Origin: a virus
DNA length: 64,000 bases
Direction: 5' to 3' (one strand)
IMG/VR virus record: IMGVR_UViG_3300021602_000003
Location: 102,257 to 166,256 of that record
Shown: positions 1,414-33,979 of the stretch, piece after piece
How positions within the stretch are numbered: the stretch's first letter is position 1
Layout: each line of letters begins with the position of its first letter
Position numbers and translations under genes: made by a program
Notes under the pieces: model-generated
The model's input: the letters and a program-made list of their open reading frames with translations, nothing else
What the model was told of the DNA's origin: nothing
Databases searched by the model: none

Positions 1414-2481
1414 ATGATATTTGCACTATTAACTTTATTCTCTGCTTTATCGCTTGCAGCGGTAGCTGGCTGGTTCTCTATAGTAGGTATTATGTCTATT
1501 TATGCAGGTGCGCCAATGCACGCCGCATTTGTAATGGGTGTAGTTTTAGAGTTCGCTAAATTAGTTACAGTAAGTTGGATATATAGGAATTGGCCCGAAG
1601 CTAAATGGAAATTGCGAGGCCCCCTTATATATTCCATCGCTGCACTAATGCTAATAACAAGCATTTCCGTATTTGGCTTTTTAACGAAAAGCCATTTAGA
1701 ACAAGGTGCTGCTACCATAGATAATTCTGCTAAGGTAGAAAGATTAGACCAGCAGATAGCAAGAGAAAAATCTGTTATAGCGGATGATGAAAAAGTTATC
1801 ACACAGTTAGATACAACAGTTAATTCTTATCTAGGTAAAGATAATGCAGATAGGGCGGTAGTAATACGCCGTTCACAAGCTTCGCAGCGTAAACAATTGC
1901 GCGGAGATATAGAATCTGCTCACAAAAAGATAGATGGATATAGTGACGAGAAGTTTAAATTACAATCCGAAGTTAGAGCACTTAAATTAGAAGTTGGCCC
2001 CATTAGGTATATTGCCGAGTTATTTTATAGTAGCAGTGGCGATGAAACTAAAAATATTGAAGCGGCAGTAAAATTATTTACATTACTGATTGTATCGACA
2101 TTAGATCCTTTAGCAGTTATACTATTAATTGCCGCTAACCATACCTTACTGCGACTCCAAAATGAGAAAAGTAAAAAGAAAGAAACGGATCCGGTTGATG
2201 GGCCGCAAATTACTATCCCCGATGACAAAGAGCAAGTTGAAGACTCTCCGCATATCGAAGAAAGCAGGAGCAGCGAACCCGACCAGCGTGTGGATTTTTC
2301 TGGAATACCTCTTCATGCAGTCGAAGAAGAAGCCAAGATACATGATTCAGTACCTGAAGAAATTGTGGAATTATTAGATAATAGAATAGAAAAATCAGAC
2401 GAAGTTAAACATACTCCAAAAAAGTATCCCACCGCGTTGAGTTGGTTGGCAGAATTTAGAAAGTCAAAAAATAATGGATAA
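1414..2481 (+). CDS. membrane protein with coiled coil and acidic tail
   Basis: Three N-terminal hydrophobic helices, long coiled coil, fourth TM segment (DPLAVILLIAA). Confidence 0.75.
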   Translation: MIFALLTLFSALSLAAVAGWFSIVGIMSIYAGAPMHAAFVMGVVLEFAKLVTVSWIYRNWPEAKWKLRGPLIYSIAALMLITSISVFGFLTKSHLEQGAATIDNSAKVERLDQQIAREKSVIADDEKVITQLDTTVNSYLGKDNADRAVVIRRSQASQRKQLRGDIESAHKKIDGYSDEKFKLQSEVRALKLEVGPIRYIAELFYSSSGDETKNIEAAVKLFTLLIVSTLDPLAVILLIAANHTLLRLQNEKSKKKETDPVDGPQITIPDDKEQVEDSPHIEESRSSEPDQRVDFSGIPLHAVEEEAKIHDSVPEEIVELLDNRIEKSDEVKHTPKKYPTALSWLAEFRKSKNNG

Positions 2482-3709
2482 TATCGAAAATAAAATAATT
2501 AGGAAGATCGTCAATTGTTCTTATTGTGGAAAGGGGAGACACGAAGTAGAACAAATGGTAGAAGGACCGGAGTTCGGTGGAAAGATTATTTATATATGCA
2601 ACGAATGCGTAGATGTTACATATAATACAATACATACCGAAGAAGTAGATGTTATAAAGAAGAAAAAAGAAAAAATATTAATTCCTGAAGAAATTAAAAA
2701 ATTCTTGGATGAATATATTATAGGTCAAGATAATGCCAAGATTGCTATATCTGTGGCTGTCTATAATCATTATAAACGAATCAATAATAAATCTAAGACA
2801 GAATTAGAAAAATCCAATCTACTAATGATTGGTGAATCGGGATGCGGGAAGACACTTCTTGTAAAAACAGTAGCCAAATTATTCGACTTACCTTGCGTTA
2901 TAGCAGATGCCACAACATTAACCGAAGCAGGATACGTAGGTGAGGATGTTCAAAATTTAATAAGCCTCCTTATACAAAACGCCGGGGATGATGTAGACAG
3001 GGCTCGTACAGGCATTATATTCATAGACGAAATAGATAAAAAGAGTCGTAAGAGCGAATCTGCTGTAACTGGACGAGATGTATCCGGCGAAGGCGTGCAA
3101 CAGGCATTGTTAAAATTAATAGAAGGCTCAGTTATAAAGATAGAAGATGGGTATGACGAACCTATCGATTTCGATACGAAAGATATATTGTTTGTATGTA
3201 GCGGAGCATTTGTAGGGTTAGACGAAGTTGTTCGAAAGAATAGATCCAAGACAGGAATAGGTATCGGTGCAAACATAAGTACAAGATCATCTTTTTCTGA
3301 AACAATTAAAGATATACGATCCGATGACCTAATTAAATATGGCCTTATTCCTGAATTTGTAGGCAGATGTCCTGTTACTGTTGTTTTTGATGATCTTACC
3401 GCAGATATATTGGTTAAGATATTGAAAGAGCCTAAGAACAGTATAGTTGAACAATTTAAGGCGTTATTCAAATACGAAGGGGTTTCTTTAGACTTCGATG
3501 ATAAATACCTACAGAATGTAGCTGATAATTCTTTGAAGCAAAAGATAGGTGCACGTGGGTTACGAGCAATAATGGAGAAGGATCTTCAGGCTACACAATT
3601 TGTACTTCCGAAATTAGCAAAAAACGGCGTCAACAAAATATTTGTAGATGCGAATGGAACAATTAAACATGTATACAAGGCAGCAAAAAGAGCAAAAAAT
3701 GAGCAGTAA
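2474..3709 (+). CDS. clpX: Clp protease ATPase ClpX
   Basis: C4 zinc domain (CSYC...CNEC), Walker A GESGCGKT, DATTLTEAGYVGED, DEIDK, RDVSGEGVQQALLK, GARGLR. Confidence 0.95.
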   Translation: MDNIENKIIRKIVNCSYCGKGRHEVEQMVEGPEFGGKIIYICNECVDVTYNTIHTEEVDVIKKKKEKILIPEEIKKFLDEYIIGQDNAKIAISVAVYNHYKRINNKSKTELEKSNLLMIGESGCGKTLLVKTVAKLFDLPCVIADATTLTEAGYVGEDVQNLISLLIQNAGDDVDRARTGIIFIDEIDKKSRKSESAVTGRDVSGEGVQQALLKLIEGSVIKIEDGYDEPIDFDTKDILFVCSGAFVGLDEVVRKNRSKTGIGIGANISTRSSFSETIKDIRSDDLIKYGLIPEFVGRCPVTVVFDDLTADILVKILKEPKNSIVEQFKALFKYEGVSLDFDDKYLQNVADNSLKQKIGARGLRAIMEKDLQATQFVLPKLAKNGVNKIFVDANGTIKHVYKAAKRAKNEQ

Positions 3710-3959
3710 ATATAAAGACAGCAAGAGACACAGAGGTATGTTTGTAGAAGTTAGGAACGACGACTTTGGACGAGCATTAAGGACTTTCTCTAAGAAAGTT
3801 CAAGATTCGGGATTAATGCAAGTCCTTAAAGAAAATATGTCTTATGAAAAACCTGCGGTCTTAAGACAGCGAATGAAAAAACAAGCTCGTAAGCGTTGGG
3901 AAAGAACTGTAGAAGAAATGATAACAAACGGTCATTGGCATAAAGACAAAAACTATTAA
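3699..3959 (+). CDS. rpsU: ribosomal protein bS21 homolog
   Basis: VEVRNDDFGRALRTFSKKV..SGL.......YEKP...R..K..ARKR pattern; start taken at ATG 3699. Confidence 0.8.
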   Translation: MSSKYKDSKRHRGMFVEVRNDDFGRALRTFSKKVQDSGLMQVLKENMSYEKPAVLRQRMKKQARKRWERTVEEMITNGHWHKDKNY

Positions 3960-3986
3960 TTAGTATATAATGTCAGTGAGGTAAAT

Positions 3987-4088
3987 AATTTTGCAAGATG
4001 CCCATAATGGGGTTTTGTAAATTAGCAGTATGGTACTGCAACGTGTTTTGATATAGCACGATAAACTTGCTTTAAAGGAGTAATTATG
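3987..4088 (+). promoter_or_regulatory. ROSE-like RNA thermometer 5'UTR
   Basis: Four consecutive hairpins; the last (ACUUGCU-UUAA-AGGAGU) pairs UUGCU, with a bulged G, against the SD of an sHSP gene. Confidence 0.7.
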
Positions 4089-4496
4089 TCAAGAAATGAT
4101 TTCACACGGCTATTCGATCAATTAGATTCTCTTACTGTTGGCTTTGGTCCAGTGTTTAGAGACTTCCAGGTTCCTACAAATAACTATCCTCCGCACAACA
4201 TTGTTAAAATTTCTGACAATGAATTTTATCTTGAATTAGCAGTAGCTGGATTTAAGAAGGATGAAATGAAGATGGAAGAACACCAGGGTCTGTTAACAAT
4301 TACTGGAGACAAGAATGTCGATCCAGATTCGGCCTACCAGTATAGAGGTATTGCAGGTCGTTCATTCTCGAAGAGCTTCCGTATCGCTGAATATTTTGAA
4401 GTAAATGCAGCATCTATGGAAGATGGCATCTTAACAGTTAACTTTGTTAAGAATGCACCAGAAGAAGCCAAACCTAAGTTGATTGCAATCAAATAA
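4086..4496 (+). CDS. ibpA: small heat shock protein (Hsp20/IbpA family)
   Basis: NYPPHNI, LAVAGF, YRGIAGRSF.KSF, A.MEDGIL, PEEAKPKLIAIK. Confidence 0.93.
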   Translation: MSRNDFTRLFDQLDSLTVGFGPVFRDFQVPTNNYPPHNIVKISDNEFYLELAVAGFKKDEMKMEEHQGLLTITGDKNVDPDSAYQYRGIAGRSFSKSFRIAEYFEVNAASMEDGILTVNFVKNAPEEAKPKLIAIK

Positions 4497-4513
4497 GATT
4501 GATTGACTTATTT

Positions 4514-4550
4514 GCCCCGGATATGTAATAATATATTACATATTTGGGGT
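4514..4550 (+). promoter_or_regulatory. 17-bp stem-loop between hsp20 and clpS covering the clpS RBS region
   Basis: GCCCCGGATATGTAATA-ATA-TATTACATATTTGGGGT; TTGACT at 4503. Confidence 0.55.
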
Positions 4551-4555
4551 CACAT

Positions 4556-4861
4556 ATGACAGAAACAGACGTTATTGAAAAAATCGAGGAATCTACCGAT
4601 ATAAAGATTCCTAAGATGTACAAAGTGTTATTGCATAATGACAATACCACTACGGCGGATTTTGTTGTTGCTGTCCTTCTACGTATCTTTCATAGAACGT
4701 TAGAAGATTCTATGCTTGTAACACAAGAAGTTCATGAGAATGGTATAGGTATTGCCGGCTCGCCCTACACACACGAAGTGGCTAATGAGAAGGTTGTAGA
4801 AACTACTAGTTTCTCCAGATTAAATAATTTTCCTCTAGTAACCACATTAGAAGAAATTTAA
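4556..4861 (+). CDS. clpS: N-degron adaptor ClpS
   Basis: PKMYKVLLHNDN.T..DFV..VL, EVHENG, EVA..KV, FPL..TLEE; ATG 4556 preferred. Confidence 0.92.
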   Translation: MTETDVIEKIEESTDIKIPKMYKVLLHNDNTTTADFVVAVLLRIFHRTLEDSMLVTQEVHENGIGIAGSPYTHEVANEKVVETTSFSRLNNFPLVTTLEEI

Positions 4862-4887: not shown

Positions 4888-5925
4888 ATGTTAGACAAAT
4901 TAATTCCCGTTAAATCCTTTCTAGGTAAGTATCACCAGGAATTATTATCTCTGTCAAAACAAGACAAATATAAAAATACTGACCTAGGTAGATTCTTCGA
5001 ACAACGATTTCATATACAGAATAATAAAGTTCGAATGATCGTTGATCCGTTAATTACAGATTTAACATTAGTAATTAGTGGTAATGAAATTTATATAAGT
5101 AAGAAATTGTACGATCATCCAAATGTTATTGTTAATAACTCTTTGGAGTCTAGTCAGCAGGTAGATATAAAAGAATTATATGATTCCGAAATATTTTCTA
5201 CTATCGCCTATCTTCTATGTCAGAACCAAACTACTCTGCAGATTGTAGGAGAGATAGACGAGCCCATTTATATAACATATAAAGCCGATTACGAAACATT
5301 TTATAATTCCTTATTAGTCTTTGATATACTAGACGGTATCGAAGTAGAAGTTATTGAGGAAATAGAAAGTTTCGGTGCTCTTAATGCAGTAACGAATTAT
5401 ATTTTAAGTCCCGAATCTACTTTGAATTTAAGAAGTTTTTATAAGAATCATATATCATCACTGTCATTTTTTTATAGAAATATAATTGTGCGTGATGGCG
5501 CCGCCTTTAACCATATATTATTTGGAAAGGGATCGACCACAGTGATAGACGAAAACAGAATTCAGATCTCTCCAAAAGCCATTGTAGAATTATTCGGTAT
5601 AGTAAATTCTTTAGGTAAGAATTTTCATACTATATTGGGCGTTCAATCCGAAACAAATAATTATTCAGTTTCTGTAGATTATAAAGGCATACTATTTAAG
5701 AATTCTAATGTGTCTTTTTACCCAACTATATTGGGAGAATTACCTACAGAAGATTCAGCAACAATAGATATTTCAAATATTACAACAGATGATATTCCGT
5801 CGGACGAAGTATCGTCAAAGATATCTGAATTTATATCAGGTATAGTTAATGATGCTATTTTGGTAAGAATGAGTGGGGTTAAGAGATTCTATGATAATAA
5901 ATCTAAGTATCTCTTTTCTTTATAA
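4888..5925 (+). CDS. divergent SufD/SufB-like beta-helix protein
   Basis: DEPIYI, repeating beta-strand pattern (EVEVIEEIES, TNYILSPESTL, VDYKGIL...VSFYP) as in SufBD. Confidence 0.55.
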   Translation: MLDKLIPVKSFLGKYHQELLSLSKQDKYKNTDLGRFFEQRFHIQNNKVRMIVDPLITDLTLVISGNEIYISKKLYDHPNVIVNNSLESSQQVDIKELYDSEIFSTIAYLLCQNQTTLQIVGEIDEPIYITYKADYETFYNSLLVFDILDGIEVEVIEEIESFGALNAVTNYILSPESTLNLRSFYKNHISSLSFFYRNIIVRDGAAFNHILFGKGSTTVIDENRIQISPKAIVELFGIVNSLGKNFHTILGVQSETNNYSVSVDYKGILFKNSNVSFYPTILGELPTEDSATIDISNITTDDIPSDEVSSKISEFISGIVNDAILVRMSGVKRFYDNKSKYLFSL

Positions 5926-5961
5926 ATAACAATAGTTCCTTAATAATTTTCAGGAGAAAAC

Positions 5962-6300
5962 ATGTATAAAATAACAGACATTTTATCGTTAGGTACAGAA
6001 TATACAGTAGCAGACCCAAAGGGAGATGTCATAGGTACAATACAAATTATACCTTATGATGATATCTTATCTGCTACACAAGGGTCCTATATATTCGAAT
6101 CTGAAAGCTATCAAGCATATATTGACGAATCGATTTCTATCTTATCGGGATTTGAAGAAATAGATCCTACAAAAGTATTATGGTATGCTACAACAGAAGA
6201 TGAAGTAGTAATAACAGAAATTATAGAGTATGCTTTACTGAATGGATACGACAAAATTATATTAGAACATTTAGAAGAAAAGATAGATGACAAAGTCTAA
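5962..6300 (+). CDS. hypothetical acidic protein
   Basis: AGGAG RBS; TATAAATA upstream. Confidence 0.7.
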   Translation: MYKITDILSLGTEYTVADPKGDVIGTIQIIPYDDILSATQGSYIFESESYQAYIDESISILSGFEEIDPTKVLWYATTEDEVVITEIIEYALLNGYDKIILEHLEEKIDDKV

Positions 6301-6478
6301 TAAAGTGGAACGCAATGTTTGTTCTTGGGTAGGAGAAGGTGAAGGATGCCGCCAACCAACAATATATGGTAAGGCATATTGTGAAACACACCTCGATAGG
6401 ATGTATACAACACTTTCTCCGGAAATAGCGGATTATATTATAGAGAAAGAATTAAAAAATGATACAAAAATCAAATAG
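6287..6478 (+). CDS. small Cys/His protein (resembles GcrA C-terminal domain)
   Basis: CSW..EGEGC.......AYCETH pattern. Confidence 0.5.
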   Translation: MTKSNKVERNVCSWVGEGEGCRQPTIYGKAYCETHLDRMYTTLSPEIADYIIEKELKNDTKIK

Positions 6479-6656
6479 AACTATGTCTACGGGGCATTGG
6501 TTAATGTTAGATGAGAATAAGACACCATCGCTCTCTGTACAAATTTTGAGTATGGTAGTTGTATGCACAGTAACCATACCCTTACTATTATTAGTTACGT
6601 TAGGTGCAGGAGCCACACAAGCCTATACTAAAATAAAACAATCAATTGACTTGTAA
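6459..6656 (+). CDS. small membrane protein
   Basis: One hydrophobic segment; follows the operon direction. Confidence 0.5.
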   Translation: MIQKSNRTMSTGHWLMLDENKTPSLSVQILSMVVVCTVTIPLLLLVTLGAGATQAYTKIKQSIDL

Positions 6657-6664
6657 TTAAATAG

Positions 6665-6687
6665 AAAGATACTTAGGTATCTTTTTT
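6665..6687 (+). terminator. rho-independent terminator
   Basis: AAAGATAC-TTAG-GTATCTTTTTT. Confidence 0.6.
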
Positions 6688-6747
6688 AATCGCCGGAAAC
6701 TCTACCATACATGATAAATAAGTATATTGAGTATAAAGGGGCCAGCA

Positions 6748-9594
6748 ATGGATCAACGAAACGAATTTTCAAAATGGATATCGGCTGTAGAGGAAGCATT
6801 AGCTGACGAAGGTAAGCCACTTGCAGAAGATAAACCTGCTTTAGATGAATGCGGTTGCGGAGAATGGTCCTGTAAGACATGTTTTCCAGATGACACCGAA
6901 GAAAAACCCAAGGCAACACAGGCACTAGGTGCAGGTAAGGGCGTTAAGATTGGAAATATTGTAACAAAAACAGAATTCGAACCAACTGGTGGGGAAGATT
7001 CCCCAATGACACACGCTGAAGATAATTTGGATGAAAATCCACTTAATTTTGATGATGAAGATGATTTCGAAGAGTATGACGATAGAGAATATCAAGATGA
7101 CGACGATCGTTCAATGTTTGCAGATCCGGGTGGCAATAGCGCATTAAGAGCAGCAACAGATGATAACCCACGTATATATCCTTGCCCATCCTGCGGAGCA
7201 GAAGATGCCCTAACATTGCAAGACAAGCGTCGTGGTTATCAATGTGACCGTTGTGCCGATGCAGCCGAGGGTGGTTATGATATTGATGAACAGCCACAAA
7301 ATACATTAGATGTAGAGCAACCACTTTTTGGTGAAGAGCAAAGTCAATTAGGCGCAAGATCCGGCAATCATAATTATTATGCCGATTTTACAAATATGAT
7401 GTTTAATACAGATCAAGATGATGCAATGGATTTGAAAAAATCAATCGAATATATGCAATCCATGGGATTGAGTAATTCCGATAAAGCATATAATGAAGAC
7501 GAATTAAATAGAATGACTCCGGAGCAATTAGAGAAGCACCATTCCGAAGTTATGGGTAATACAACAGGCGGCTCTCCAGACATGGACGAAGCAACGGGCC
7601 CGATGCCTTCGCCAAAGCCCAATAAGCCTAAGACAGATACTAAACAAGAAGATGATCCATTTTGGAATGACATGAACGATTTGTTTAATCCTAAGCCCGA
7701 TCAACCATTAGCTAATATACCCGACGAGCAAGGAAATGAACCTGTAGGTAATGAACCGACAGCATCACTCCCTGTTGCATCTAGACAATCCACACAAGAT
7801 AGATTAAGTAATATGAATCCGTCCGACGGCATGAGACGTTCGATGGACCTTATTAATCGTGCTGCAATAACACCGGATACAGAAGAGCCTGTTATTCCGC
7901 AAAATGAATTAGTTGTTAGAACAGCAAGAGATGTTCCCGCAGTGGTTAGTACAGCAATGCGCGCCGCAGGTGTCCAATCACCCGAATGGCATCATGTACG
8001 AGACTTACCGGGGATGAGTGATGCTCATATAAGAGGCATGGGTAAAGATATATTTGGTATGTTTACATCCACCCCTGTTGGACAAATACAAACAATTGCC
8101 AACGTAGAAGGACAAGGTCCAAATACAGATGCAGAACTAAGAGCAGTCGCCGGATGGTTACGAGACAATGCAGACGATTTAGGTCGAGTAGAAGTAAGTC
8201 ACGGTATAGTAGTGCCCGGATATGAAGTTGATGTAAAAGAATATAAAGCAAATGGTATTAGATTCCATGTGGTAAGAGATGATCACGGACAATACATATA
8301 TGCTTACCCCGATAATACAGCAAGAATACAAGGACCAGCAGCCAGAGACCCAGGCACAAGATTAGGTGGCGGAAATACGCCAAGATTACGTGAATCTAAC
8401 AAAGGAAAAGACATGTCGTTATCACTATTTGAAGAATTAGAATTAGATCAGGCAATTAAGTCTGCGTTGAAACAGCTAATAATTACAGAATCTGAAGAGA
8501 TCGAGGAAAGTACACTAAGCAAGGAGATTGCGTGGAAACCGGGATCTCCAGGAAAGCAAGAAAAGAACCAGGGCGGTTGGAATTTATTGCAATTATTACA
8601 TAGAAATCATAAATTAAGTAATGAAGCAGATATGGAACCATTGCCATTTAATAGAGACGTTCTATACGGTTATTTCAAGAATCATCCGGATCACTTTATT
8701 ATTGTTAAAGGTACACACGGAGTAGCAGCTATTCGTCCGTCCGAAGAATATTTTGCACATGAAAGAAATAAACCGTCGACAAGAAAACGTCCTAATCCAA
8801 AAGGATTTGCATCGGATCCAAATCAGGATTTGAATGCACCATATCTACAATATCAAGTTATTGCTTTCCAAAATGACGGTAAGCAATTAGATTCATCTTT
8901 ATTCAAGGATGTTGAAGCAAAAGATAAAGAAGACGACGATGAGGATAAGTTTACAACGACGGATCCTACAGTGCAAAGACTTAGAATGGGATTATTTCAT
9001 GGTAAAGATACCCAGTCACAGTATAATGTATTTAAATTATTGTCTGATGAAATCGGTAGATTAACAACCATGTATATGAGTGGATTCCATGCGCTCAGAA
9101 AAGGCCAGTTAGGTGACCAGAAGGGTGCAGAAGCAGAAATACAGCCACATAAGGGATCGGTTGAGAGAGAAAAGATAAAAGCCAGATCGGATCTTAAGAA
9201 TCCTGCACCAGCATTAAGTGTATCGGAAGCTAAGACAAGAATATTTGATAGAATTCGGCCTATCCTGCAGCCAATAATTTCTAAAGCATATAGTAAAGTA
9301 TCTTTAGCATTGCAAGATGCTGTACGTGATGATCACCAGGGCGATTTAGAAAGACTGACATCTGTACGTAAAGCGATAAATGAAATTAAGGTCGCAGTTG
9401 ATACAAAGGGTCCGGTTGCTCTATCAGGTACATTGAATAATATCCTGACAAAGGCAATTGAGAAGGCAACAGGCGCTAATTCCTATGATAAGAATTATCA
9501 AACAGCCGTATCGAATTTAGCAAAAGGTCCAGCAATGAAATTAGAACCGCTTATTCAATCTCTAAGAAAGATATTAATCGGGGCTATAAGATGA
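6748..9594 (+). CDS. large acidic multi-domain protein, candidate internal head protein
   Basis: TGATAAATA upstream; two Cys clusters (CGCGEWSCKTC; CPSC...CDRC); repeated hydrophobic-x-E sites in acidic linkers. Confidence 0.7.
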   Translation: MDQRNEFSKWISAVEEALADEGKPLAEDKPALDECGCGEWSCKTCFPDDTEEKPKATQALGAGKGVKIGNIVTKTEFEPTGGEDSPMTHAEDNLDENPLNFDDEDDFEEYDDREYQDDDDRSMFADPGGNSALRAATDDNPRIYPCPSCGAEDALTLQDKRRGYQCDRCADAAEGGYDIDEQPQNTLDVEQPLFGEEQSQLGARSGNHNYYADFTNMMFNTDQDDAMDLKKSIEYMQSMGLSNSDKAYNEDELNRMTPEQLEKHHSEVMGNTTGGSPDMDEATGPMPSPKPNKPKTDTKQEDDPFWNDMNDLFNPKPDQPLANIPDEQGNEPVGNEPTASLPVASRQSTQDRLSNMNPSDGMRRSMDLINRAAITPDTEEPVIPQNELVVRTARDVPAVVSTAMRAAGVQSPEWHHVRDLPGMSDAHIRGMGKDIFGMFTSTPVGQIQTIANVEGQGPNTDAELRAVAGWLRDNADDLGRVEVSHGIVVPGYEVDVKEYKANGIRFHVVRDDHGQYIYAYPDNTARIQGPAARDPGTRLGGGNTPRLRESNKGKDMSLSLFEELELDQAIKSALKQLIITESEEIEESTLSKEIAWKPGSPGKQEKNQGGWNLLQLLHRNHKLSNEADMEPLPFNRDVLYGYFKNHPDHFIIVKGTHGVAAIRPSEEYFAHERNKPSTRKRPNPKGFASDPNQDLNAPYLQYQVIAFQNDGKQLDSSLFKDVEAKDKEDDDEDKFTTTDPTVQRLRMGLFHGKDTQSQYNVFKLLSDEIGRLTTMYMSGFHALRKGQLGDQKGAEAEIQPHKGSVEREKIKARSDLKNPAPALSVSEAKTRIFDRIRPILQPIISKAYSKVSLALQDAVRDDHQGDLERLTSVRKAINEIKVAVDTKGPVALSGTLNNILTKAIEKATGANSYDKNYQTAVSNLAKGPAMKLEPLIQSLRKILIGAIR

Positions 9595-11369
9595 CATTTG
9601 CAAATTATTTGCCAGAAGCATTTCTATTAGAGGACGTTGCACTGACTAAAGGTAGTCAGCGTGTTATGAGCGATAAGACTTTAGTAAGCGGCCTGGCAGC
9701 AAGAGTGAGAAGAGATGCGGATTTTAATCCGTCTGTCTTTCCACCTAATGCAGATAGGAAATTTGAAAAGGCATCCGACGAAGATGTTGCAAAGTGGTTT
9801 CTTGAAAATATCGATAAGATAGAAAAAGAAGGGTATGAAGGTACTATATATTCTAGAGACGGAATGTATAGCGACTGGATTGTTAGACGATATATTGCAG
9901 GTAGTCACAACTGGGAAGATTTGAAGGGTGTGATGAATATGAATCTTAGGGATTGGACAATTCTTAAGAATCGTAACGAATTAGACCCCGCTCACAAAGA
10001 AGTTTCCAAATTTAAGAGTGTGCGCGAAATCGGTGCATACATGGTTCATCACTATCAAGATAAGTTAGAGGATGTTCGCAATGCTGCAAAATTTGCCGCC
10101 AGGGATAAAATGGCTCGGGCTATTCCGCTTATTAATAATGCAGATTATAAAATTACAGTTGCTTTAAACAGAGCAGCAGCATGTAAATTAGGATCCGGAA
10201 CACAGTGGTGTACTGCAAATTCTACATATGGAGATATGTTTAAGAGATATGCTGGTGAGGCAATGTTATATCAGATGTATCCTGCTGTGCCGGAAACAAT
10301 CAGTAAGAAAAGTAGTATGACAGGTAAAGAAATAACAGGTAAAGAAAAATATCAGTTTGGTCCGGATTCAGGATTATCTTTTAAAGATATAGCAGACGAA
10401 AATGTTAAGCCTGAGGATATAAGAACAAAATTTCCTTACTTGTATACAGATCTTGTTGCTGCATTAAAACAGAATAAGGCCAAAATTGTAGAATTAGAAA
10501 AGACATTTTCAGAAGACCCCGCATTGCAAGATCCCGATATGAGTAAGATTAGGACATATAATGTAGATGAAGAAATTACAAAATTAAAGAAGTTTATAAC
10601 TGCCGGATATATGACAGACGAAGTTCGTCCTAAAGAGCACGTAGAGAAGGATGATGCCGGGCAAGAACAACCGCAACTATCACCGCCGGTTGAGACGCTG
10701 CCACAAGCTGCACCTATGGAAAGTATCACAGAATTTGCTCGAAGAATGTTAGAAGGTAAAACTAATAAAGACGAGTTAGACGAAGAAGATTTAGAAGACA
10801 CAGATTCAGATTTAGGATCAATGGGCGCCGGCGCTGGCCCAACGGGAGGCGGAAAATTTCCGCCAGGTACAGCACCAACAATGCCGGAATCATTTAATAA
10901 TAAAGGAACAGAGATCATGGAAAATGTAGATAAAGATGTAGCAGCAATGCTTAAGAATTTAAAGAAATATGACAGGTTGGTAGAATCGTGTGCACCAGTG
11001 TTAATGGCTCGTCCAAAACCATATATAGCAGAGAAGGAAGAGGTTGAGGAAGAAGATATCGAAGAAGGGTGGGACGAAGATCAGGCTAAGAAAGAAAAGC
11101 TTAAGGCTCCTCCAGAAGAAGTAAATCTCGAAGAAGGCAAGCCGTGGGAAGCAGACAAGGAAGAAGATAAGAAAGAAGCCAAGACAGGCGATAAGACTAA
11201 GACACATAAGGGTGGCGAAGTTACTAAGACAAAAGATGGCCTGACCCATAAAGGAACTTATGGTTCTGATAAGGCTAAGGACAAAGTCGACGAAGGCGCT
11301 GATCCAGAGGTGCTAGAATGGATGAGTCGTTTCTCTAAACTCGGTAACATGAAAGGCTACGGTCGTTAA
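9591..11369 (+). CDS. large protein with GTQWCTA domain and acidic tail, candidate internal head protein
   Basis: AACKLGSGTQWCTA..F..Y motif; many L/I/M/V-x-E sites. Confidence 0.7.
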   Translation: MTFANYLPEAFLLEDVALTKGSQRVMSDKTLVSGLAARVRRDADFNPSVFPPNADRKFEKASDEDVAKWFLENIDKIEKEGYEGTIYSRDGMYSDWIVRRYIAGSHNWEDLKGVMNMNLRDWTILKNRNELDPAHKEVSKFKSVREIGAYMVHHYQDKLEDVRNAAKFAARDKMARAIPLINNADYKITVALNRAAACKLGSGTQWCTANSTYGDMFKRYAGEAMLYQMYPAVPETISKKSSMTGKEITGKEKYQFGPDSGLSFKDIADENVKPEDIRTKFPYLYTDLVAALKQNKAKIVELEKTFSEDPALQDPDMSKIRTYNVDEEITKLKKFITAGYMTDEVRPKEHVEKDDAGQEQPQLSPPVETLPQAAPMESITEFARRMLEGKTNKDELDEEDLEDTDSDLGSMGAGAGPTGGGKFPPGTAPTMPESFNNKGTEIMENVDKDVAAMLKNLKKYDRLVESCAPVLMARPKPYIAEKEEVEEEDIEEGWDEDQAKKEKLKAPPEEVNLEEGKPWEADKEEDKKEAKTGDKTKTHKGGEVTKTKDGLTHKGTYGSDKAKDKVDEGADPEVLEWMSRFSKLGNMKGYGR

Positions 11370-11681: not shown

Positions 11682-11710
11682 TTGACTTTCGAGTAAGTAA
11701 GTATTATACT
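11682..11710 (+). promoter_or_regulatory. sigma70-type promoter
   Basis: TTGACT-17nt-TATACT. Confidence 0.75.
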
Positions 11711-13167: not shown

Positions 13168-13386
13168 ATGACACTATACGATGTGCCCATCAATTATACA
13201 GGGATAGTAGACCAACTTGTAGAAACTGGCTACCATCATATCATTCATCGTCTTGGCGAGTTAGGATTCATTACAGGCGAGCCCGTAATGGTTGTCGCTC
13301 GAAATAAAGGCGCTATAGCAGTTCGCATAGGAGATTCTATGTTTGCATTGAATAAAATAGAAGCAAGTTGCATTCGAGTATCTTGA
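13168..13386 (+). CDS. feoA: FeoA domain protein
   Basis: RLGELGFITGE.V.V.....G.IAVRIGDS.FAL...EA..I.V. Confidence 0.8.
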   Translation: MTLYDVPINYTGIVDQLVETGYHHIIHRLGELGFITGEPVMVVARNKGAIAVRIGDSMFALNKIEASCIRVS

Positions 13387-13411
13387 CTTATATAGTTAAG
13401 TTTTATATACT
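13383..13411 (+). promoter_or_regulatory. sigma70-type promoter for clpP-iscA
   Basis: TTGACT-17nt-TATACT. Confidence 0.75.
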
Positions 13412-13451
13412 ACTATACAGATTTATCTAATTACATAAAGGAAAACAAATT

Positions 13452-14042
13452 ATGGCACATTTTTGGCCGACAGTCGTTGAAACATCATCTAAGGGTGAAA
13501 GAGCATATGATCTAGCAAGCAGATTAATGCGAGAACGAGTTATTTTCCTTAACGGAGAAGTGACAGATCAAATGTCTGAGATAGCAGTAGCGCAATTGTT
13601 ATTCTTGGAGGCAGAAAACCCGGAGCAAGATATTCATGTATATATCAATAGCCCCGGAGGAAGTGTTACAGCAGGTTTAGCAATTACGGACCTATTTGAA
13701 TATGTAAAACCTGATATTTGTACCTATGTGACAGGTCAGGCAGCAAGCATGGGTTCTTTGTTTCTTGCAGCCGGCGCCAAAGGTAAACGATACTCATTAC
13801 CTAATGCTACTATTATGATTCATCAAGTATTATCGGGATATAGTGGTCAAGCTTCAGATATCGAACTTCATACAAACGAAACACTGTATCTAAAGCGCAA
13901 ACTCAACAAGATGTTATCAGATTTTACTTACGGTAAAACGGATTATGATACAATGGTTACGTTGACAGATCGAGATAATTTCTTAAGGCCGGAGAAGGCA
14001 TTAGAAATCGGTCTTATCGATCATATTATTTCCAAAAGGTAA
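13452..14042 (+). CDS. clpP: Clp protease proteolytic subunit
   Basis: [19 protein letters not shown] (Ser), IMIHQ (His), RDNF (Asp). Confidence 0.96.
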
Positions 14043-14658: not shown

Positions 14659-15381
14659 ATGGCACCATCTAAGGCATTATTGAGTGTAGAGGTATTGAGG
14701 GCAATTTACGAATATGGGTTGGGGTGGTTATTAAATGTACCCCTCCAATTTATTTCGCCCAAAGGTGATAATCACCCTGTAATAATTATACCCGGTCTTG
14801 GCACATCAGATGGTTCGACACACTTTATCAGACATTTTTTAACAAGTTTAGGTTACGACACTCATCCTTGGGGACTAGGTAGAAATCTGGGACCTAAGGA
14901 TGGTATGGATGTACTTCTAGACAAACTAGTTGAAAGAACCGAGTATGTATCAAAGGCATCCGATGGGCAACAAGTCAGTATAATAGGATGGAGTTTGGGT
15001 GGTATATACGCACGAGAGATAGCGAAAGTAATTCCCGATACAGTAAGACAAGTGATCACGCTAGGGACACCGTTCAAAGGTACCGACAGTACAAATGCTA
15101 CCTTGCTATATGAATTGCTGAGCAAAGACACGAGCCACAAAGATCCCGATATATTAAGGAAAATAGCAGAACCGCCACCTGTGCCGTTTACCTCTATATA
15201 TAGCAGAACAGACGGTGTAGTTCATTGGGAATCTTCTATCGAAATATCCGGCGCACAGTACGAAAATATCGAAGTGCCCGGTGCATGCCATCTAGGATTA
15301 GGTCATAATCCCATATCTATGTTTATTATTGCAAATAGATTATCACAGACAAAAGATAACTGGGCGCCATATAAAATCTAG
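14659..15381 (+). CDS. alpha/beta hydrolase (lipase/esterase-like)
   Basis: IPGLG, nucleophile elbow GWSLGG, SRTDGVV, HLGLG. Confidence 0.88.
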   Translation: MAPSKALLSVEVLRAIYEYGLGWLLNVPLQFISPKGDNHPVIIIPGLGTSDGSTHFIRHFLTSLGYDTHPWGLGRNLGPKDGMDVLLDKLVERTEYVSKASDGQQVSIIGWSLGGIYAREIAKVIPDTVRQVITLGTPFKGTDSTNATLLYELLSKDTSHKDPDILRKIAEPPPVPFTSIYSRTDGVVHWESSIEISGAQYENIEVPGACHLGLGHNPISMFIIANRLSQTKDNWAPYKI

Positions 15382-16861: not shown

Positions 16862-17326
16862 ATGACAAAGAAAATTACAAATACAGTAGATTTGAATCTA
16901 TATACCAACTTCGTGGAAGCAATAACTAGTAAGGAGAGTGAAGATCTAACAACTTTTATGAATAGTTTGGATAGACTGGATGCTAACTTCGAAGTGTTTG
17001 AAGGTGGCGCCACTGCTAAACACGGGCCCGATGTAAATGTTTCGTTATTGATTACTGGAGCTATGGGTATGTGCGGTGAATCGGGGGAATTTAGCGAGAT
17101 TGTAAAAAAACTTATATTTCATTCCAAACCGCTAACACCTGAAGTTCACCAACATTTACAGAAAGAATTGGGTGATATTATTTTTTATTGGACGAATACT
17201 TGCCGCAGTCTGGGTGTAGACCCAAATACTATTATCCAGATGAATGTTGATAAATTGTCTTCGAGATACCCCGGCGGAGTATTTTCGGTAGAAAGATCGG
17301 AAAACCGCGAAGCGGGAGATATCTAA
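16862..17326 (+). CDS. MazG-like NTP pyrophosphohydrolase
   Basis: GMCGESGEF.EIVKK, KELGDI.FY, N..KL..RYP. Confidence 0.85.
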   Translation: MTKKITNTVDLNLYTNFVEAITSKESEDLTTFMNSLDRLDANFEVFEGGATAKHGPDVNVSLLITGAMGMCGESGEFSEIVKKLIFHSKPLTPEVHQHLQKELGDIIFYWTNTCRSLGVDPNTIIQMNVDKLSSRYPGGVFSVERSENREAGDI

Positions 17327-17379: not shown

Positions 17380-18288
17380 ATGAACAAGACATCTAAATTT
17401 TTAGAAATGATAGCAAGAGTTAGGTTGGACAGGGCAACCGTATATAATTATGACAATGTGAATTATGTAAATAATTCTACTAAAATTAAAATCGGGTGTC
17501 CTGTGCACGGTGAATTCGAACAGCGACCAGCAGATCACAGATCTAATTCCGGTTGTCCCGAGTGTGGAAGACTTAAGGCTATAGAAACTAATTTAATAAA
17601 ATATGGAACAACAAATCCAGCATCATCTAAAATCATTAAAGATAAGATCCGGGCAATATTTATAAAGAAATATGATGGAATAGATAATCCTTCTAAAGTA
17701 GCGTCAGTTAAATTACAGAAAGAAGATACTTGTTTAAAGAACTACGGTGTTAAACACCCGTGGCAGTCATCGGAGATACAGGATCGTAAGAAATTAACAA
17801 ATATCAACAGATATGGGTTTGAAAGCCCGATGAAGAATAAAGATATTTCTGCCAAGGCTGTTGCGACTAAAATTGCCAATGGCGGATTTGACCGATCGAA
17901 TTCGAGTAAAGAAGCAACCGAATATATCAGAAATTATATACGGGAGAAATCTTATATTATAGATCAGTGCGCGTATGCTGATTTCGAAGCCGGTCTATAT
18001 GAATGGGGGATTTATAAGAATGGTAGATGGATATTATACGACCTTGTTGTATTCGAACCAGGATACAGGGGCGATAAGACAAAAATTGTCGAAATACTTG
18101 AATATCACGGCCCATTCCATTATAATACAGAGGAAGTCGAGGTCCGAGGGGAAGATAATGCTTATCCTTGGAAAACAAACAGGACGACAATTAAAGAGAG
18201 TTATGATAGAGATGTCGAAAAAGAAACAATAGGCAGAACAATGACATCAAATTATAATATAGTATGGTCTAAAGAAGGAGATATTTAA
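17380..18288 (+). CDS. putative homing endonuclease (Zn ribbon, KYG repeats, PD-(D/E)xK-like tail)
   Basis: CPVHGEF...GCPECG, T...KYG..NP repeats, YDL...LEYHG; paralog of 54746..55795. Confidence 0.7.
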   Translation: MNKTSKFLEMIARVRLDRATVYNYDNVNYVNNSTKIKIGCPVHGEFEQRPADHRSNSGCPECGRLKAIETNLIKYGTTNPASSKIIKDKIRAIFIKKYDGIDNPSKVASVKLQKEDTCLKNYGVKHPWQSSEIQDRKKLTNINRYGFESPMKNKDISAKAVATKIANGGFDRSNSSKEATEYIRNYIREKSYIIDQCAYADFEAGLYEWGIYKNGRWILYDLVVFEPGYRGDKTKIVEILEYHGPFHYNTEEVEVRGEDNAYPWKTNRTTIKESYDRDVEKETIGRTMTSNYNIVWSKEGDI

Positions 18289-18593
18289 TGAGTTTTAAAA
18301 AACTGTGTAGGAAATTGCTTAACTGGATACACTCCGATGAGGCAAATTTGATAGGATCGGACCCGCGGCCATTAAGAAAACACAACGCAATGCTTTCAAA
18401 CGGTGAATTCGAAGATTCATCTGGTTTGTCGTTTGTTGTATATTCGGCAAAGGGCGGCGGCAAGATAATTCAAACAGTAAGTTATGATCGATTAATGGAT
18501 ACAAGAAAGACAGGCCTGTACATTATTGCTAACGATGATGATTTCGGGGAAGAACTTTCGCAAATTATCACAAGAGAGATGTTGTCAAGATAA
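18288..18593 (+). CDS. hypothetical protein
   Basis: AGGAG RBS; coupled ORF. Confidence 0.7.
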   Translation: MSFKKLCRKLLNWIHSDEANLIGSDPRPLRKHNAMLSNGEFEDSSGLSFVVYSAKGGGKIIQTVSYDRLMDTRKTGLYIIANDDDFGEELSQIITREMLSR

Positions 18594-19054
18594 TGGATGT
18601 ACTAAACCCAAAATGGGCCAGCCGCCTATTAGGAATGGCTAAAGATGTGTCGACTTGGTCCAAAGACGAATCGACCAAAGTAGGTGCAGTTATTACTACA
18701 TTAGATGGTTCTCCAGTTTCTTGGGGGTTTAATGGTATGGCTAAAGGTATAGATGATACTGTAGAGGAACGTAAAGAAAGACCCCTTAAGTATAAATGGA
18801 TGTGCCATGCCGAACGCAATGCTATGGATTTATCTCCACGTGCTGACTTAACTGACTGTGTTATGTTTGTTACATTCTCACCGTGTACTAATTGCGCCCA
18901 GTCTATTATTCAACGTGGCATTAAGACAGTTGTTATTGATGCACAATTCACGGCCGAGAAGTCTCCCGAAAGATGGCAAGAAGATATGCTTGTTGCTTTG
19001 GAAATGATGAAAGAATCCGGAGTAAAAGTTTTTGCATATCCGTCCGAAGGTTGA
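18593..19054 (+). CDS. dCMP deaminase
   Basis: KVGAVI, GFNG, HAERNA, PCTNC. Confidence 0.9.
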   Translation: MDVLNPKWASRLLGMAKDVSTWSKDESTKVGAVITTLDGSPVSWGFNGMAKGIDDTVEERKERPLKYKWMCHAERNAMDLSPRADLTDCVMFVTFSPCTNCAQSIIQRGIKTVVIDAQFTAEKSPERWQEDMLVALEMMKESGVKVFAYPSEG

Positions 19055-22621: not shown

Positions 22622-22805
22622 TATCACAAAAGTGTGGGAAAAAGACGGAAAACTATATGGCAGGACCGCACCAGGTAGGCCCTTTCAAATTTATAATCTT
22701 CAGTGTACACTTGAATCTATTTTAGAGTATGATTTCAGCAATGTGGTAGAAGGTCGTGAATTAGTTAAACAATATATCAAGTCAGAGGATACAAATGCGA
22801 ATTAA
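22611..22805 (+). CDS. hypothetical protein
   Basis: GGGG RBS before ATG 22611. Confidence 0.55.
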   Translation: MENNITKVWEKDGKLYGRTAPGRPFQIYNLQCTLESILEYDFSNVVEGRELVKQYIKSEDTNAN

Positions 22806-23139
22806 AGCATTAAAAGGTAAAGTACTGGTAACAGATTTAGAACGCGGTTCTAGACTTATAAATGGAATTATTATTCCTGATGATAATGGTAAGAGCGAAG
22901 GCATTCGCCCTCGCTGGGGCCGAGTATATTCGATTGGTGAAGGTATCGATGAAATTTCTGTTGGACAATGGATATTGGTCGAGAATGGTCGCTGGACTCG
23001 CATGTTAAAGATAAGAGAAGACGATGGCACTTATATACAGGTATGGGGTGTAGAATGGCCTAAATCTGTTATGCTTGTATCGGACGAAGATCCTGATATG
23101 AATATATTTTCTGAATTTACTACATCACACGCATTTTAG
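22795..23139 (+). CDS. groES: GroES-like co-chaperonin
   Basis: IKALKGKVLV...GIIIPD...G.V.SIGEG...ISVG. Confidence 0.75.
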   Translation: MRIKALKGKVLVTDLERGSRLINGIIIPDDNGKSEGIRPRWGRVYSIGEGIDEISVGQWILVENGRWTRMLKIREDDGTYIQVWGVEWPKSVMLVSDEDPDMNIFSEFTTSHAF

Positions 23140-27321: not shown

Positions 27322-27325
27322 TCGT

Positions 27326-30589: not shown

Positions 30590-30593
30590 TAAA

Positions 30594-30815: not shown

Positions 30816-30930
30816 TGAAACTATTCTTAGAAATAGTTGCGGTAATATTTTTACCTGTAGAGATAGTTTATTCCTGGATAGAGCACTTTACTTTAAAGAT
30901 CTTCTCTAGAAAAAATAAGAAATATTTAAG

Positions 30931-31755
30931 ATGAGTAAAAGGGATTATTATACAGTCCTAGGGGTCGAGCGTTCTGCAACACCCGAAGATTTAAAAACAA
31001 AATACAGGCAACTGGCAAGTAAGTATCATCCCGATAAAATTACTGGTGCCGATGGTTCGCCCGAAAAACTGACTGCCGAAGCTAACTTCAAGGAAGTTAA
31101 AGAGGCATACGAAATTCTTGCCGATGTCGAGAAGCGTCGACAGTACGATATACACGGTCACGAAGGTCTGTCTGGTGGAAATGCACAGCAATGGGCGCAT
31201 GGCGCAACTAACCACCAAAATGTCGAAGACATGCTCAAATCATTCTTCGGTACTGGTGCATCGTTCGACCCCTATAGTGGTACTCAGCGCCGCCAACAAA
31301 TAACTGTTATAAATATTTCATTAGCAGATGCTTACTCGGGTAAGGTAATTAGGGTTGATTCGTCAGTTACTTTGACTATTCCTAGAGGAGTACGATCCGG
31401 TACACGATTCTTTGCCGATAATAAATTATACCGTATTGATGTTCAGCCTCATTATAAATTTAAGAGGGCGAACGACGACTTATTAGTCGACGTAAATATT
31501 AATTCTGCTGAAGCTGCACTGGGCGTGGCGGCTATACTCGACCACATAGACGGTGCTAAACTACAGTTTACAATACCTGCAGGTATTCAGCCCGGACAAA
31601 TAGTTAAATTAGCAGGTAAGGGTATGAATAATCCAGAGATAGATAGACAGGGCGATATCTTGGTTAGGATCAGTATTAATATTCCTAAAAATTTAAGTGA
31701 TGCAGAGAAGGACATTATGAAGTCTTTGAATCACAGAGAATCTATAAATATTTAA
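30931..31755 (+). CDS. dnaJ: class B J-domain chaperone (no Zn finger)
   Basis: RDYY.VLGV, YHPDK, EAYEIL, C-terminal IPAG.QPG...L.GKGM...GD. Confidence 0.88.
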   Translation: MSKRDYYTVLGVERSATPEDLKTKYRQLASKYHPDKITGADGSPEKLTAEANFKEVKEAYEILADVEKRRQYDIHGHEGLSGGNAQQWAHGATNHQNVEDMLKSFFGTGASFDPYSGTQRRQQITVINISLADAYSGKVIRVDSSVTLTIPRGVRSGTRFFADNKLYRIDVQPHYKFKRANDDLLVDVNINSAEAALGVAAILDHIDGAKLQFTIPAGIQPGQIVKLAGKGMNNPEIDRQGDILVRISINIPKNLSDAEKDIMKSLNHRESINI

Positions 31756-31762
31756 GGTAAAC

Positions 31763-33979
31763 ATGACTAAAAAAGTAGAAAAGATGATCGAGAGAGCAGT
31801 GACTCTCGCTAATGACAATAATCACGAATATGTAACCTTAGAACATATGCTATTATCTCTGTTGCATGAGAAAGAAGTCAACGAACTTATACTTGCAGTA
31901 GGCGGACAACCGGCTAAGATTAAGGCCGAAACTGTCCAATTTTTGGGTGATCCTGCACTAAAGAAACCTGATGCACTCAAAGATGTGCCGGCAAAGCGTA
32001 CATCAGTATTAAATCGCACGTTTCAACGTGCATTAACTCAAGTAATATTTTCGGGTCGCAGAGAGTTGACCAACGAAGGTATTCTACTAAGTATCCTTAG
32101 TGAGGAAACTAGTCATGCATTCTATTACTTAGGTAAACACGGTGTTACCAGAGAAAAGATTATGGGACAACTGCGTAAGTCGGAAGAAAAGCAAGGACCT
32201 AATGAGACTTTCTTAGATCAATATGCACGTAATCTGAATAAGGAAGCTACTGACGGATCTATCGATCCTGTAATCGGTAGAGAAAAAGAAGTTATGGATA
32301 CTATCGAAATTCTTGCTAGACGCAGAAAGAATAACGTAGTTTATGTGGGCGAACCCGGTGTTGGAAAGACAGCACTTGCTGAAGGACTTGCATTAAAAAT
32401 TGTTAATAAAGAAGTGCCTAAAGCATTACAGAACAAAGTAGTATATAGTTTAGATGTTGGCGCATTGATCGCTGGCACAAAATTCCGTGGAGACTTTGAA
32501 GAACGTCTTAAAGGTGTTTTAGAGCAAGTTAAGAAAATGGGCAACTGCATTATGTTCATTGATGAAATTCATATGATCTTAGGTGCGGGCGCCGCAGGTG
32601 GTGGTCAAATGGATGCAGGCAATTTGTTGAAACCTATGCTTGCCAAAGGACAATTAACTTGTGTAGGTGCGACTACGTACGACGAGTTCCATCAACACTT
32701 TGAGAAAGACAAAGCATTGCTTCGTCGCTTCCAAAAATATGATATTGAACAACCGTCCGCACTAGAGACTAAATTAATTCTTAAAGGCATTGCTTACCAA
32801 TACGAAAAGTTCCATGGCGTTACTTTCGAGGAAGGTGCTACAGATATGTGTGTAGATTTAGCTGACCGATATCTGAAGTCGAAGTTCTTTCCTGACAAGG
32901 CAATCGATATTATGGATTCGGCTGGCGCGATAACTAAACTGATGGATCAAACAGTCGTTACCATCGATACCATTGTGCAGCAGGCGGCAAAGATTGCACA
33001 TATGCCTGTTGATATGATTGATATGAAAGAGAATACTTCACTCGAGAATCTTGCTCCACGTATGAAGGACAAGGTATATGAACAAGATGAAGCAATTGAT
33101 AAATTAGTCGAAGCTATTTTTATGTCTAAGGCAGGATTACGAAATCCATCTAAGCCCATCGGTAGTTTCTTGTTTACTGGCCCAACAGGAACTGGTAAGA
33201 CTTATACGGCCAGTAAACTTGCCGAAACATTGGGTGTACATTTTGCTAGATTTGATATGTCCGAGTATATGGAAAAGCATACTGTATCTAAATTTATTGG
33301 AGCGCCTCCCGGGTACGTAGGACACGGCGAAGGTAAGATGGGTGAGGGACAACTAATCCAGACGATTGATACACATCCTAACTGTGTATTACTGTTAGAT
33401 GAAATTGAGAAGGCTAATCCGGACGTTCTTAGTGTATTATTACAAGTTATGGATGCCGGGCGGCTTACTTCGTCTAAAGGTAAGACAATTGATTTTTCAA
33501 ATGTGATAATTATTATGTCGGCCAACCTGGGCGCTGCTGAAGCTGAAAGGCTAAAGATAGGGTTTGGAAGTCAGGACAACGAAGGTGCAGTGGACTCGGA
33601 GATTAAAAAGTTCTTTGCTCCAGAGTTTAGAAACAGACTGGATGCTATTGTAAAGTTTAACAAACTGACCATGGCTGGTATGAACTTGATTGTTAATGCA
33701 GAAGTAGAAAAGGTGGATGCAATGCTCTCCCCTAAAAACATCAGCATTAATGTAACACAACAAGCTCGCGACTGGTTAGCTAAAAATGGATATGATCCTA
33801 AATTTGGTGCAAGACCATTCGAAAGACTGTTCGAAGAGAAAGTTAAGAAACCACTTTCTAAGGAAATATTGTTTGGCAAACTTAAAAACGGTGGCCGAGC
33901 AAATATTGATTATAATATTATTTCCGATGTATTAATTATAGATGTTACATCATCTGTAATGGAAGAAATATTAAACTAA
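31763..33979 (+). CDS. clpA: Clp protease ATPase ClpA
   Basis: [12 protein letters not shown]-domain, two AAA+ modules ([16 protein letters not shown]), no ClpB middle domain, IGF loop. Confidence 0.93.

Follow-up and report, generated by a model that had tools for sequence, protein, structure and literature searches.

Giant phages with ATP-dependent proteases of their own could decide which host and phage proteins survive an infection, and the locus described here raises the question of whether such a phage owns whole Clp machines and, if so, what those machines would degrade. The DNA analysed is a stretch of 64,000 nucleotides (the window; positions 102,257 to 166,256 of IMG/VR virus record IMGVR_UViG_3300021602_000003) carrying genes for ClpX, a small heat-shock protein (Hsp20), the adaptor ClpS, ClpP, a GroES-like protein, a DnaJ-like protein with a J domain (J-protein) and ClpA. 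These are the final 64 kb of a linear record of 166,256 bp, for which CheckV gives a completeness of 43%, implying a full genome near 390 kb. We consider it likely that these genes make up an inherited proteostasis block of a clade of uncultured jumbo phages of approximately 360–390 kb, distant relatives of Pseudomonas phage PA5oct, which would give the phage its own ClpXP and ClpAP-ClpS, a choice of substrates shifted from the bacterial one, and helper proteins that depend on the host.

The Clp and chaperone genes of the window

All seven genes are intact open reading frames (ORFs) on the + strand, at the places and with the family matches given in a preliminary description of this DNA, as judged from family scores and alignments. 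The clpX gene (2474–3709) scores 470 bits against NF003745 (cut-off 359) and has the zf-C4_ClpX and AAA_2 domains; the Hsp20/IbpA-like gene (4086–4496) scores 55 bits against PF00011 (threshold 21) and 112 bits against phrog_432. The gene for the N-degron adaptor ClpS (4544–4861; PF02617, 73 bits, gathering score 23) was also correctly recognized, with the amendment that its ORF opens at a TTG codon at 4544, four codons before the in-frame ATG at 4556 that had been taken as the start. Further downstream are clpP (13452–14042; NF001368, 259 bits, cut-off 249, with an aligned Ser/His/Asp triad), a gene for a GroES-like co-chaperonin (22795–23139; Pfam Cpn10, 21.5 bits, cut-off 21.1; phrog_931, E 3e-13), a gene for a J-domain co-chaperone of the DnaJ/CbpA kind (30931–31755; PF00226, 79 bits; PF01556, 82 bits; HPD motif) and clpA (31763–33979), which encodes a two-ring AAA+ unfoldase with a Clp_N domain and matches TIGR02639 over its full length with 870 bits. 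The genes are dispersed among phage genes and clpS stands apart from clpA, a layout that had been described accurately. In comparison with bacteria, both the clpP-clpX and the clpS-clpA operons are broken up, and dnaJ replaces clpS 5' of clpA.

In domain architecture and in catalytic, pore-loop and docking motifs the proteins resemble those of E. coli ClpXP and ClpAP-ClpS (PDB 8e91, 1ksf, 7uiv, 1mbu). E. coli ClpA aligns with that of the window over its full length, and the alignment of ClpS is weaker.

Phage origin and distribution of the block

The nearest system is that of Pseudomonas phage vB_PaeM_PA5oct (MK797984, EST35_0255-0298; Arenbergviridae, Wroclawvirus) and its kin MIJ3, Paride, Callisto and PAC2. 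In a best-hit comparison about 27 ORFs of the window, all seven genes above among them, are collinear with PA5oct 160–205 kb at 25–57% identity. The two phages share the order ClpX, S21, Hsp20, ClpS, DNA polymerase exonuclease, ClpP, MazG, GroES-like protein and clamp loader, followed further on by PhoH on the opposite strand, DnaJ-ClpA and then structural genes, so that the genes, their order and the interleaved replication and nucleotide-metabolism genes all match; the Hsp20 gene is the positional orthologue of the PA5oct 'heat shock protein'. S21 and PhoH of the window are backed by Pfam, the window further encodes a clamp loader and a T4-like DNA polymerase, and the Clp genes sit in this replication and nucleotide-metabolism region. 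In PA5oct the slot between ClpS and the exonuclease is occupied by FtsH and a membrane protein that interacts with FtsH, whereas in the window it holds ORFs of 345, 112, 955 and 592 amino acids (4888–11369) that belong to no Pfam or PHROG family; FtsH was present in only one of five relatives searched. The 345- and 112-residue ORFs follow clpS in all close relatives (46–70% identity), and the product of the 955-residue ORF is acidic, with an Atlas predicted local distance difference test (pLDDT) score of 0.39 and no usable Atlas match. The PA5oct genome is 287 kb, versus roughly 390 kb for the phage of the window. With such low protein identities, the latter represents a different genus or family, and a megablast of 25 kb of the window against 50,697 phage records gave zero matches, indicating that no close cultured relative exists at the DNA level.

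Could the Clp genes be bacterial DNA, joined to the contig by mis-assembly or captured from a host very recently? ClpX and ClpP do reach bacterial equivalog or subfamily cut-offs, the ClpP of the window resembles bacterial ClpPs more closely than those of its phage relatives, and a few 'viral' contigs in IMG/VR hold clpS-clpA of the E. coli type. The Clp genes are, however, interspersed with some 20 PA5oct-type phage genes in conserved order, the guanine-cytosine content is even throughout the window (33–40%), almost every long ORF is on the + strand, the same layout recurs in three complete terminal-repeat genomes, and none of the bacterial ClpAs found exceeds 48% identity to that of the window. 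We therefore give this explanation a negligible probability, and for the block as a whole it is already refuted. The contig is a genuine phage and not a bacterial chimera, a concern that the preliminary description had itself raised and that the phage gene order and the complete relatives remove.

The block is not confined to the window. By tblastn, ClpA, ClpX and ClpS are all present in the PA5oct group, in Agrobacterium phage Atu_ph07, in Sinorhizobium phage Phosso and in Salicola phage SCTP-2; ClpP was not located in the last two. In IMG/VR, 218 contigs encode a ClpA relative, approximately 40 of them at 73–96% identity. Among this 73–96% group are three complete genomes with direct terminal repeats (363–385 kb), each of which has a single ClpA, a single ClpX and a single ClpP, together with ClpS, arranged relative to one another as in the window. 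When 21 large contigs were considered, all six with a ClpA relative and a completeness of at least 90% (347–524 kb) held ClpX above the equivalog cut-off, ClpS and ClpP. Metagenomic clusters, more than 120 for each protein, contain the ClpX of the clade at identities of at least 71% and its mainstream ClpP at identities of at least 86%, and the clade is abundant in the environment.

The preliminary description gave only single clpP or hsp20 genes as known from large phages, which understates the case, as PA5oct has the whole annotated set and Clp genes have been published for Atu_ph07 and for jumbo phages in general. The description of Atu_ph07 lists ClpX, ClpA, ClpB, ClpP, ClpS and DnaJ and discusses their possible roles (Attai et al. 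2018, PMC6102473), and ClpP, ClpS, ClpA, ClpX, DnaJ, Hsp20 and Hsp10 have been surveyed across jumbo phages (Iyer et al. 2021, PMC7824862). Clp is mentioned neither in the omics paper on PA5oct nor in a 2026 review of jumbo phages. The gene content was thus already known and the window is a divergent example of the PA5oct-type block of Clp and co-chaperone genes. It adds little in this respect; the new details are the clade-wide changes in ClpX and ClpS, a probable swap of clpP, and the pairing of dnaJ with clpA.

ClpA and its pairing with dnaJ

ClpA is the top-scoring family for the window protein, 187 bits above ClpB. The protein aligns continuously to E. coli ClpA (5–733) and has Clp_N, both Walker A/B pairs and the KFR and GYVG pore loops, and it lacks a middle domain of the ClpB/ClpC type. 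The IGF docking tripeptide that had been pointed out is present; it is not peculiar to the phage, since 57 of 79 bacterial ClpAs have IGF and the IGL of E. coli is the exception.

The nearest bacterial ClpAs are only 44–48% identical to that of the window (the best among 185,579 species genomes), and ClpA identities to phages are 50% for PA5oct and 50–96% for environmental phage clades. In a ClpA tree of 63 sequences, with a bacterial sample consisting of the 80 best matches, mostly from Proteobacteria, a phage-only group (Shimodaira-Hasegawa-like approximate likelihood ratio test, SH-aLRT, 99) unites PA5oct and SCTP-2 with the clade of the window and the 50% clade. All bacterial ClpAs in the sample cluster in a separate clade (SH-aLRT 100), within which a single stray 'viral' contig falls. 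The ClpAs of Atu_ph07 and Phosso lie off the phage-only group. Judged by these comparisons, the Clp module is an old possession of the phages and not a recent capture from a host; it is also widespread and under selection, and the parts that read substrates differ throughout the clade from those of bacteria.

Some database entries depart from this pattern. The ClpA of one 115-kb IMG/VR contig nests in an alphaproteobacterial clade beside a metagenome-assembled genome of Aestuariivirga, and may be either a recent phage capture or a bacterial sequence. Four 'viral' contigs of 4–7 kb have clpS directly 5' of clpA in bacterial style; in two of these the ClpS motif segments equal those of E. coli, so they look like bacterial DNA filed as viral.

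In 54 of 75 viral loci a J-protein gene ends no more than 150 bp 5' of clpA, and in 9 more it ends no more than 1.5 kb away. The corresponding figure for bacterial loci is 0 of 78, and in at least 38 of these the place is occupied by clpS. The dnaJ-clpA pair is therefore phage-specific. In the window the two genes are 7 nucleotides (nt) apart, and 18 nt after the clpA stop begins a GC-rich hairpin followed by T6 (33997–34019, + strand; GCCGCC-CCGGA-GGCGGC-TTTTTT, read from the sequence), which is probably a terminator that closes a dnaJ-clpA unit; a scan for consensus terminators picked out an overlapping weaker hairpin at 34010–34026. The J-protein diverges much faster than ClpA, with identities of 63% and 87%, respectively, in the same relative. 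Prediction of a complex between the J-protein and the N-domain of ClpA (residues 1–165), using 42-row alignments, gave a best score of 0.20 against a mark of 0.32, which speaks neither for nor against binding. DnaJ is also just 5' of ClpA in Atu_ph07, which additionally has ClpB, and in the Sinorhizobium phage Phosso. In Phosso a peptide deformylase gene lies between dnaJ and clpA, a suggestive placement because N-terminal processing creates or removes N-degrons.

Substrate recognition by ClpX and ClpS

Residues 12–398 of ClpX align with the family models, and both equivalog cut-offs are passed (NF003745 as above; TIGR00382, 428 versus 371 bits). The protein is about 48% identical to E. coli ClpX (BLASTP), and an alignment with the latter shows that the Walker A motif GESGCGKT, Walker B, the GYVG pore loop, the Arg finger and sensor-2 are kept. 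All four Cys residues of the N-terminal C4 zinc finger are retained, with a 5-residue insert that is present throughout the clade. The ClpP-docking tripeptide is IGI and not IGF (IGI or IGL in the clade), which keeps the hydrophobic-Gly-hydrophobic pattern and loses the Phe.

The largest departures concern the recognition of substrates. Throughout the clade, without exception, the RKH loop has lost 6–7 residues and is acidic (DGYDEP in the window), and T199 of the pore-2 loop (E. coli numbering) aligns with Gly in the window. The residues R228, H230 and T199, which read the ssrA tag, are thus absent from the ClpX of the window; they are a property of proteobacterial ClpX and not of the whole family. 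PA5oct ClpX differs from that of the window in having a loop of full length, without RKH, and a docking tripeptide MGF, and the ClpXs of more distant mega-phages retain GGRK and IGF or LGF. In E. coli these three residues contact the Ala-Ala-COO- degron of ssrA, R228A moves specificity off ssrA, and human ClpX, in which these residues are absent, does not degrade ssrA substrates (PMC7652416). By analogy, the loss of the RKH loop and of T199 suggests that the ClpX of the window does not read an ssrA tag of the host type.

ClpS presents a similar picture. The window protein and all 16 aligned viral sequences retain the core N-degron contacts N34, D35, T38 and H66, and likewise E79 and K84, which we take from the E. 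coli structures of ClpS with the ClpA N-domain to be contacts to that domain. The pocket itself is not of the bacterial type, having the changes D36N, Y37T, P39T and, at the gatekeeper, M40A. Elsewhere in the clade D36 is kept, Y37 is replaced by T, K, S or R, P39 by T, and the gatekeeper M40 by F or V. By comparison, N34, D35, D36, T38, M40, H66 and K84 are invariant in 66 bacterial ClpS sequences, and P39 is found in 64 of them; PA5oct ClpS, unlike that of the window, keeps the gatekeeper Met. The best PDB match of the window protein, 3g1b, also has Ala at the gatekeeper position and is presumably the engineered M53A variant of Caulobacter ClpS. We infer that this ClpS has retained ClpA binding and, as the pocket wall and the gatekeeper are altered, has changed its preference for N-terminal residues; which N-degrons ClpS selects is known to depend on the gatekeeper (PMC7966870). 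Of the complete relatives, one (363 kb) carries a further, divergent ClpS-like gene at 205165–205371 (PF02617, 45 bits), distant from the main block.

A probable replacement of clpP

The catalytic Ser (in GQAASMGS), His (in MIHQ) and Asp (in TDRDNF) of ClpP all align with those of solved ClpPs, which bears out the earlier claim of an intact triad. The protein has no propeptide, begins FWPTV at the N-terminus, and is about 53% identical to E. coli ClpP (BLASTP). Its relationship to other phage ClpPs is unexpected. Its identity to the ClpP found elsewhere in its clade, which is conserved there at 86% or more, is only 49–53%; the closest large relative is 87% identical in ClpA, 82% in ClpX and 67–80% in the genes that flank clpP, versus 53% in ClpP. 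The window type is closer to the ClpPs of Gamma- and Betaproteobacteria (60–62% identity), and in a ClpP tree a split (SH-aLRT 92) places it with the bacterial ClpPs and apart from every other viral ClpP. Forcing both ClpP types into one clade costs 47 log-likelihood units, with p = 0.042 in the approximately unbiased (AU) test, a borderline value that is indecisive by itself. About 280 bp (13168–13451), including a 72-residue ORF (13168–13386), separate clpP from a conserved minus-strand upstream gene; in the closest large relative this gene and clpP abut and the stretch is absent. The sequence comparisons make it probable that in the lineage of the window a bacterial-like copy took the place of the original clpP, and the 280-bp stretch may be the scar of the replacement. 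No other copy of the window-type ClpP above 58% identity was found in IMG/VR by single-protein or alignment scans. That the slot was refilled and not emptied argues that the phage needs a ClpP and that there is selection on having one. A His in place of Y60 in the ClpP pocket was considered as a peculiarity and dropped, for several bacterial ClpPs also have His there.

These observations bear on two other explanations of the block. The first holds that the phage Clp parts plug into the Clp system of the host, by docking to host ClpP or ClpA or by forming mixed ClpP rings, and so redirect or boost the host proteases. The docking tripeptides and the ClpP pocket residues are near to those of bacteria, the bacterial-like ClpP seems to have been swapped in without a visible change in the IGI of ClpX, and Iyer et al. 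suggested that phage ClpS supplies the ClpAP of the host (PMC7824862). Yet the full set is found in all six of the near-complete genomes, which would be needless if host subunits sufficed, and ClpS is found alongside a phage ClpA with a conserved N-domain. We regard this explanation as unlikely.

The second holds that the set serves virion morphogenesis, in which case ClpP would be a head-maturation protease or would assist one, ClpA and ClpX would be translocases in assembly, and the chaperones would fold structural proteins, a possibility that was raised by both Iyer et al. (PMC7824862) and Attai et al. (PMC6102473). The ClpP of the window does match head-maturation protease PHROGs, but scores 80 bits against the related head-maturation protease model NF045542 (cut-off 120), well under the ClpP models and the 259 bits that it receives as a true ClpP. 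PA5oct ClpP is marked 'ESI-MS/MS', as are proteins in virion preparations, while PA5oct has a separate prohead protease, gp152. The GroES-like protein falls in a PHROG named 'head morphogenesis' and PA5oct-type structural genes follow clpA; the genes themselves are located in the replication and nucleotide-metabolism region, and there is no known assembly role for an N-degron adaptor such as ClpS. A primary role in morphogenesis appears improbable to us.

Co-chaperones and their host partners

The preliminary description had called the chaperone network complete. Searches of the 166 kb contig and of the three complete relatives turned up neither GroEL nor DnaK, so that only the Clp part is self-sufficient on paper, and the GroES-like protein and the J-protein must use the GroEL and DnaK of the host. 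A search for AAA_2-type ATPases in the same sequences returned only ClpX and ClpA; ClpB and HslU, for example, were not among the hits.

The J-protein has a J domain with the HPD motif and part of the C-terminal domain, but scores only 188 bits against TIGR02349 (cut-off 377). Its sequence has no Pfam zinc-finger match and no CXXC, and with the low DnaJ score this means that it is better named a class B, or CbpA-like, protein than a class A DnaJ. The GroES-like protein is the weakest assignment of the seven. Its Cpn10 match covers the N-terminal half only, its matches to GroES in the PDB are not significant (E of only 0.2–0.6), and it is 41% identical to the PA5oct 'chaperonin'. The match to phrog_931 'head morphogenesis' is better (50.5 bits); we take this family to be of the T4 gp31 co-chaperonin type. 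Like T4 gp31, it would be a small GroES-like phage protein in a genome without GroEL, a role assigned to it here from sequence alone. The classic role of a gp31-type lid together with host GroEL is the folding of capsid protein.

A model for the function of the block

A possible mode of action, which we think probable as a whole, is as follows. The ClpP barrel of the phage would be docked by ClpX through its IGI loop and by ClpA through its IGF loop, so that host Clp subunits would not be needed. ClpS would bind the N-domain of ClpA and hand over proteins according to their N-terminal residue. The choice of substrates is probably shifted from the bacterial norm, through a ClpX without RKH and T199 and a ClpS with a rebuilt pocket and gatekeeper. 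Hsp20 would hold unfolded proteins, the gp31/GroES-like lid would use host GroEL, and the J-protein, presumably co-transcribed with clpA, would work with host DnaK. The earlier proposal of autonomous ClpXP and ClpAP-ClpS machines is sustained to the extent that all parts are present, with the ATPase motifs, the pore and ClpP-docking loops, the catalytic triad and the ClpS residues in contact with ClpA; we infer from this that the machines could assemble and act autonomously. The further suggestion that they might reprogram the turnover of host proteins, or remove defence proteins, is a hypothesis, and the altered specificity elements of ClpX and ClpS are the only features of the window that bear on targets.

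Several points weigh against this model of phage-owned machines with shifted specificity. The score of ClpA against TIGR02639 is below the equivalog cut-off of 993 bits, with residues 1–716 of 738 aligned, and that of ClpP against TIGR00493 is 252 bits versus a cut-off of 309. The IGI loop of ClpX did not change with the probable swap of clpP, which suggests generic docking and would make mixed phage-host complexes possible. The shift in ClpX and ClpS specificity is drawn from work on E. coli and plants, and a phrase search of the literature for phage-encoded Clp proteins found no experimental paper. PA5oct, which is cultured, carries the same block, and the question is thus directly testable in a laboratory Pseudomonas system.

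Candidate regulatory sites and a tmRNA

A permuted transfer-messenger RNA (tmRNA) is encoded on the same contig at positions 17871–18315, approximately 84 kb 5' of the window (RF04321, 68 bits, gathering score 47); a scan of the window itself with Rfam at the gathering score gave no match. The tag predicted by ARAGORN, ATAYTNESFVALDMSAFADSDMAVEMVA, is long and acidic and ends in -EMVA. The combination of this tag with a ClpX without RKH invites the idea of a private tag-and-destroy system. An ssrA-blind ClpX, an altered ClpS, the coupling of the J-protein to ClpA and the phage's own -MVA tag would together make up a private degradation code, independent of host quality control, by which the phage would mark and destroy chosen host or phage proteins. 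We think such a code rather unlikely. The contig also carries eight tRNA genes, one with a CUA anticodon.

Identical sigma-70-like hexamers (TTGACT, 17 nt, TATACT) are found just 5' of the exonuclease gene (11682–11710) and of clpP (13383–13411), and a similar site (TTGACT, 18 nt, AATAAT with TG) is found 5' of clpS at 4503–4532. Sigma-70-like and terminator-like consensus sites are not commoner in the window than in shuffled sequence, and TATAAATA occurs at about the frequency of a rough estimate from composition. With no enrichment of sigma-70-like sites, those near the exonuclease gene, clpP and clpS are only a lead, and no promoter class is assigned to them.

Other genes of the region

Directly after clpX is a gene for a protein similar to ribosomal protein S21 (3648–3959, + strand; PF01165, 47 bits), which is 57% identical to PA5oct S21 across 42 aligned residues. 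As called, this ORF overlaps the end of clpX, and its true start is probably downstream of 3648; its position is common to PA5oct and the complete relatives. A MazG-like gene (16862–17326) and a gene at 18593–19054 are inverted in order relative to PA5oct, with an HNH/homing-endonuclease-like ORF (17380–18288) between them. Two ORFs 3' of clpP there is a gene for a serine esterase-like alpha/beta-hydrolase (14659–15381), which is found in all close relatives at 63–74% identity.

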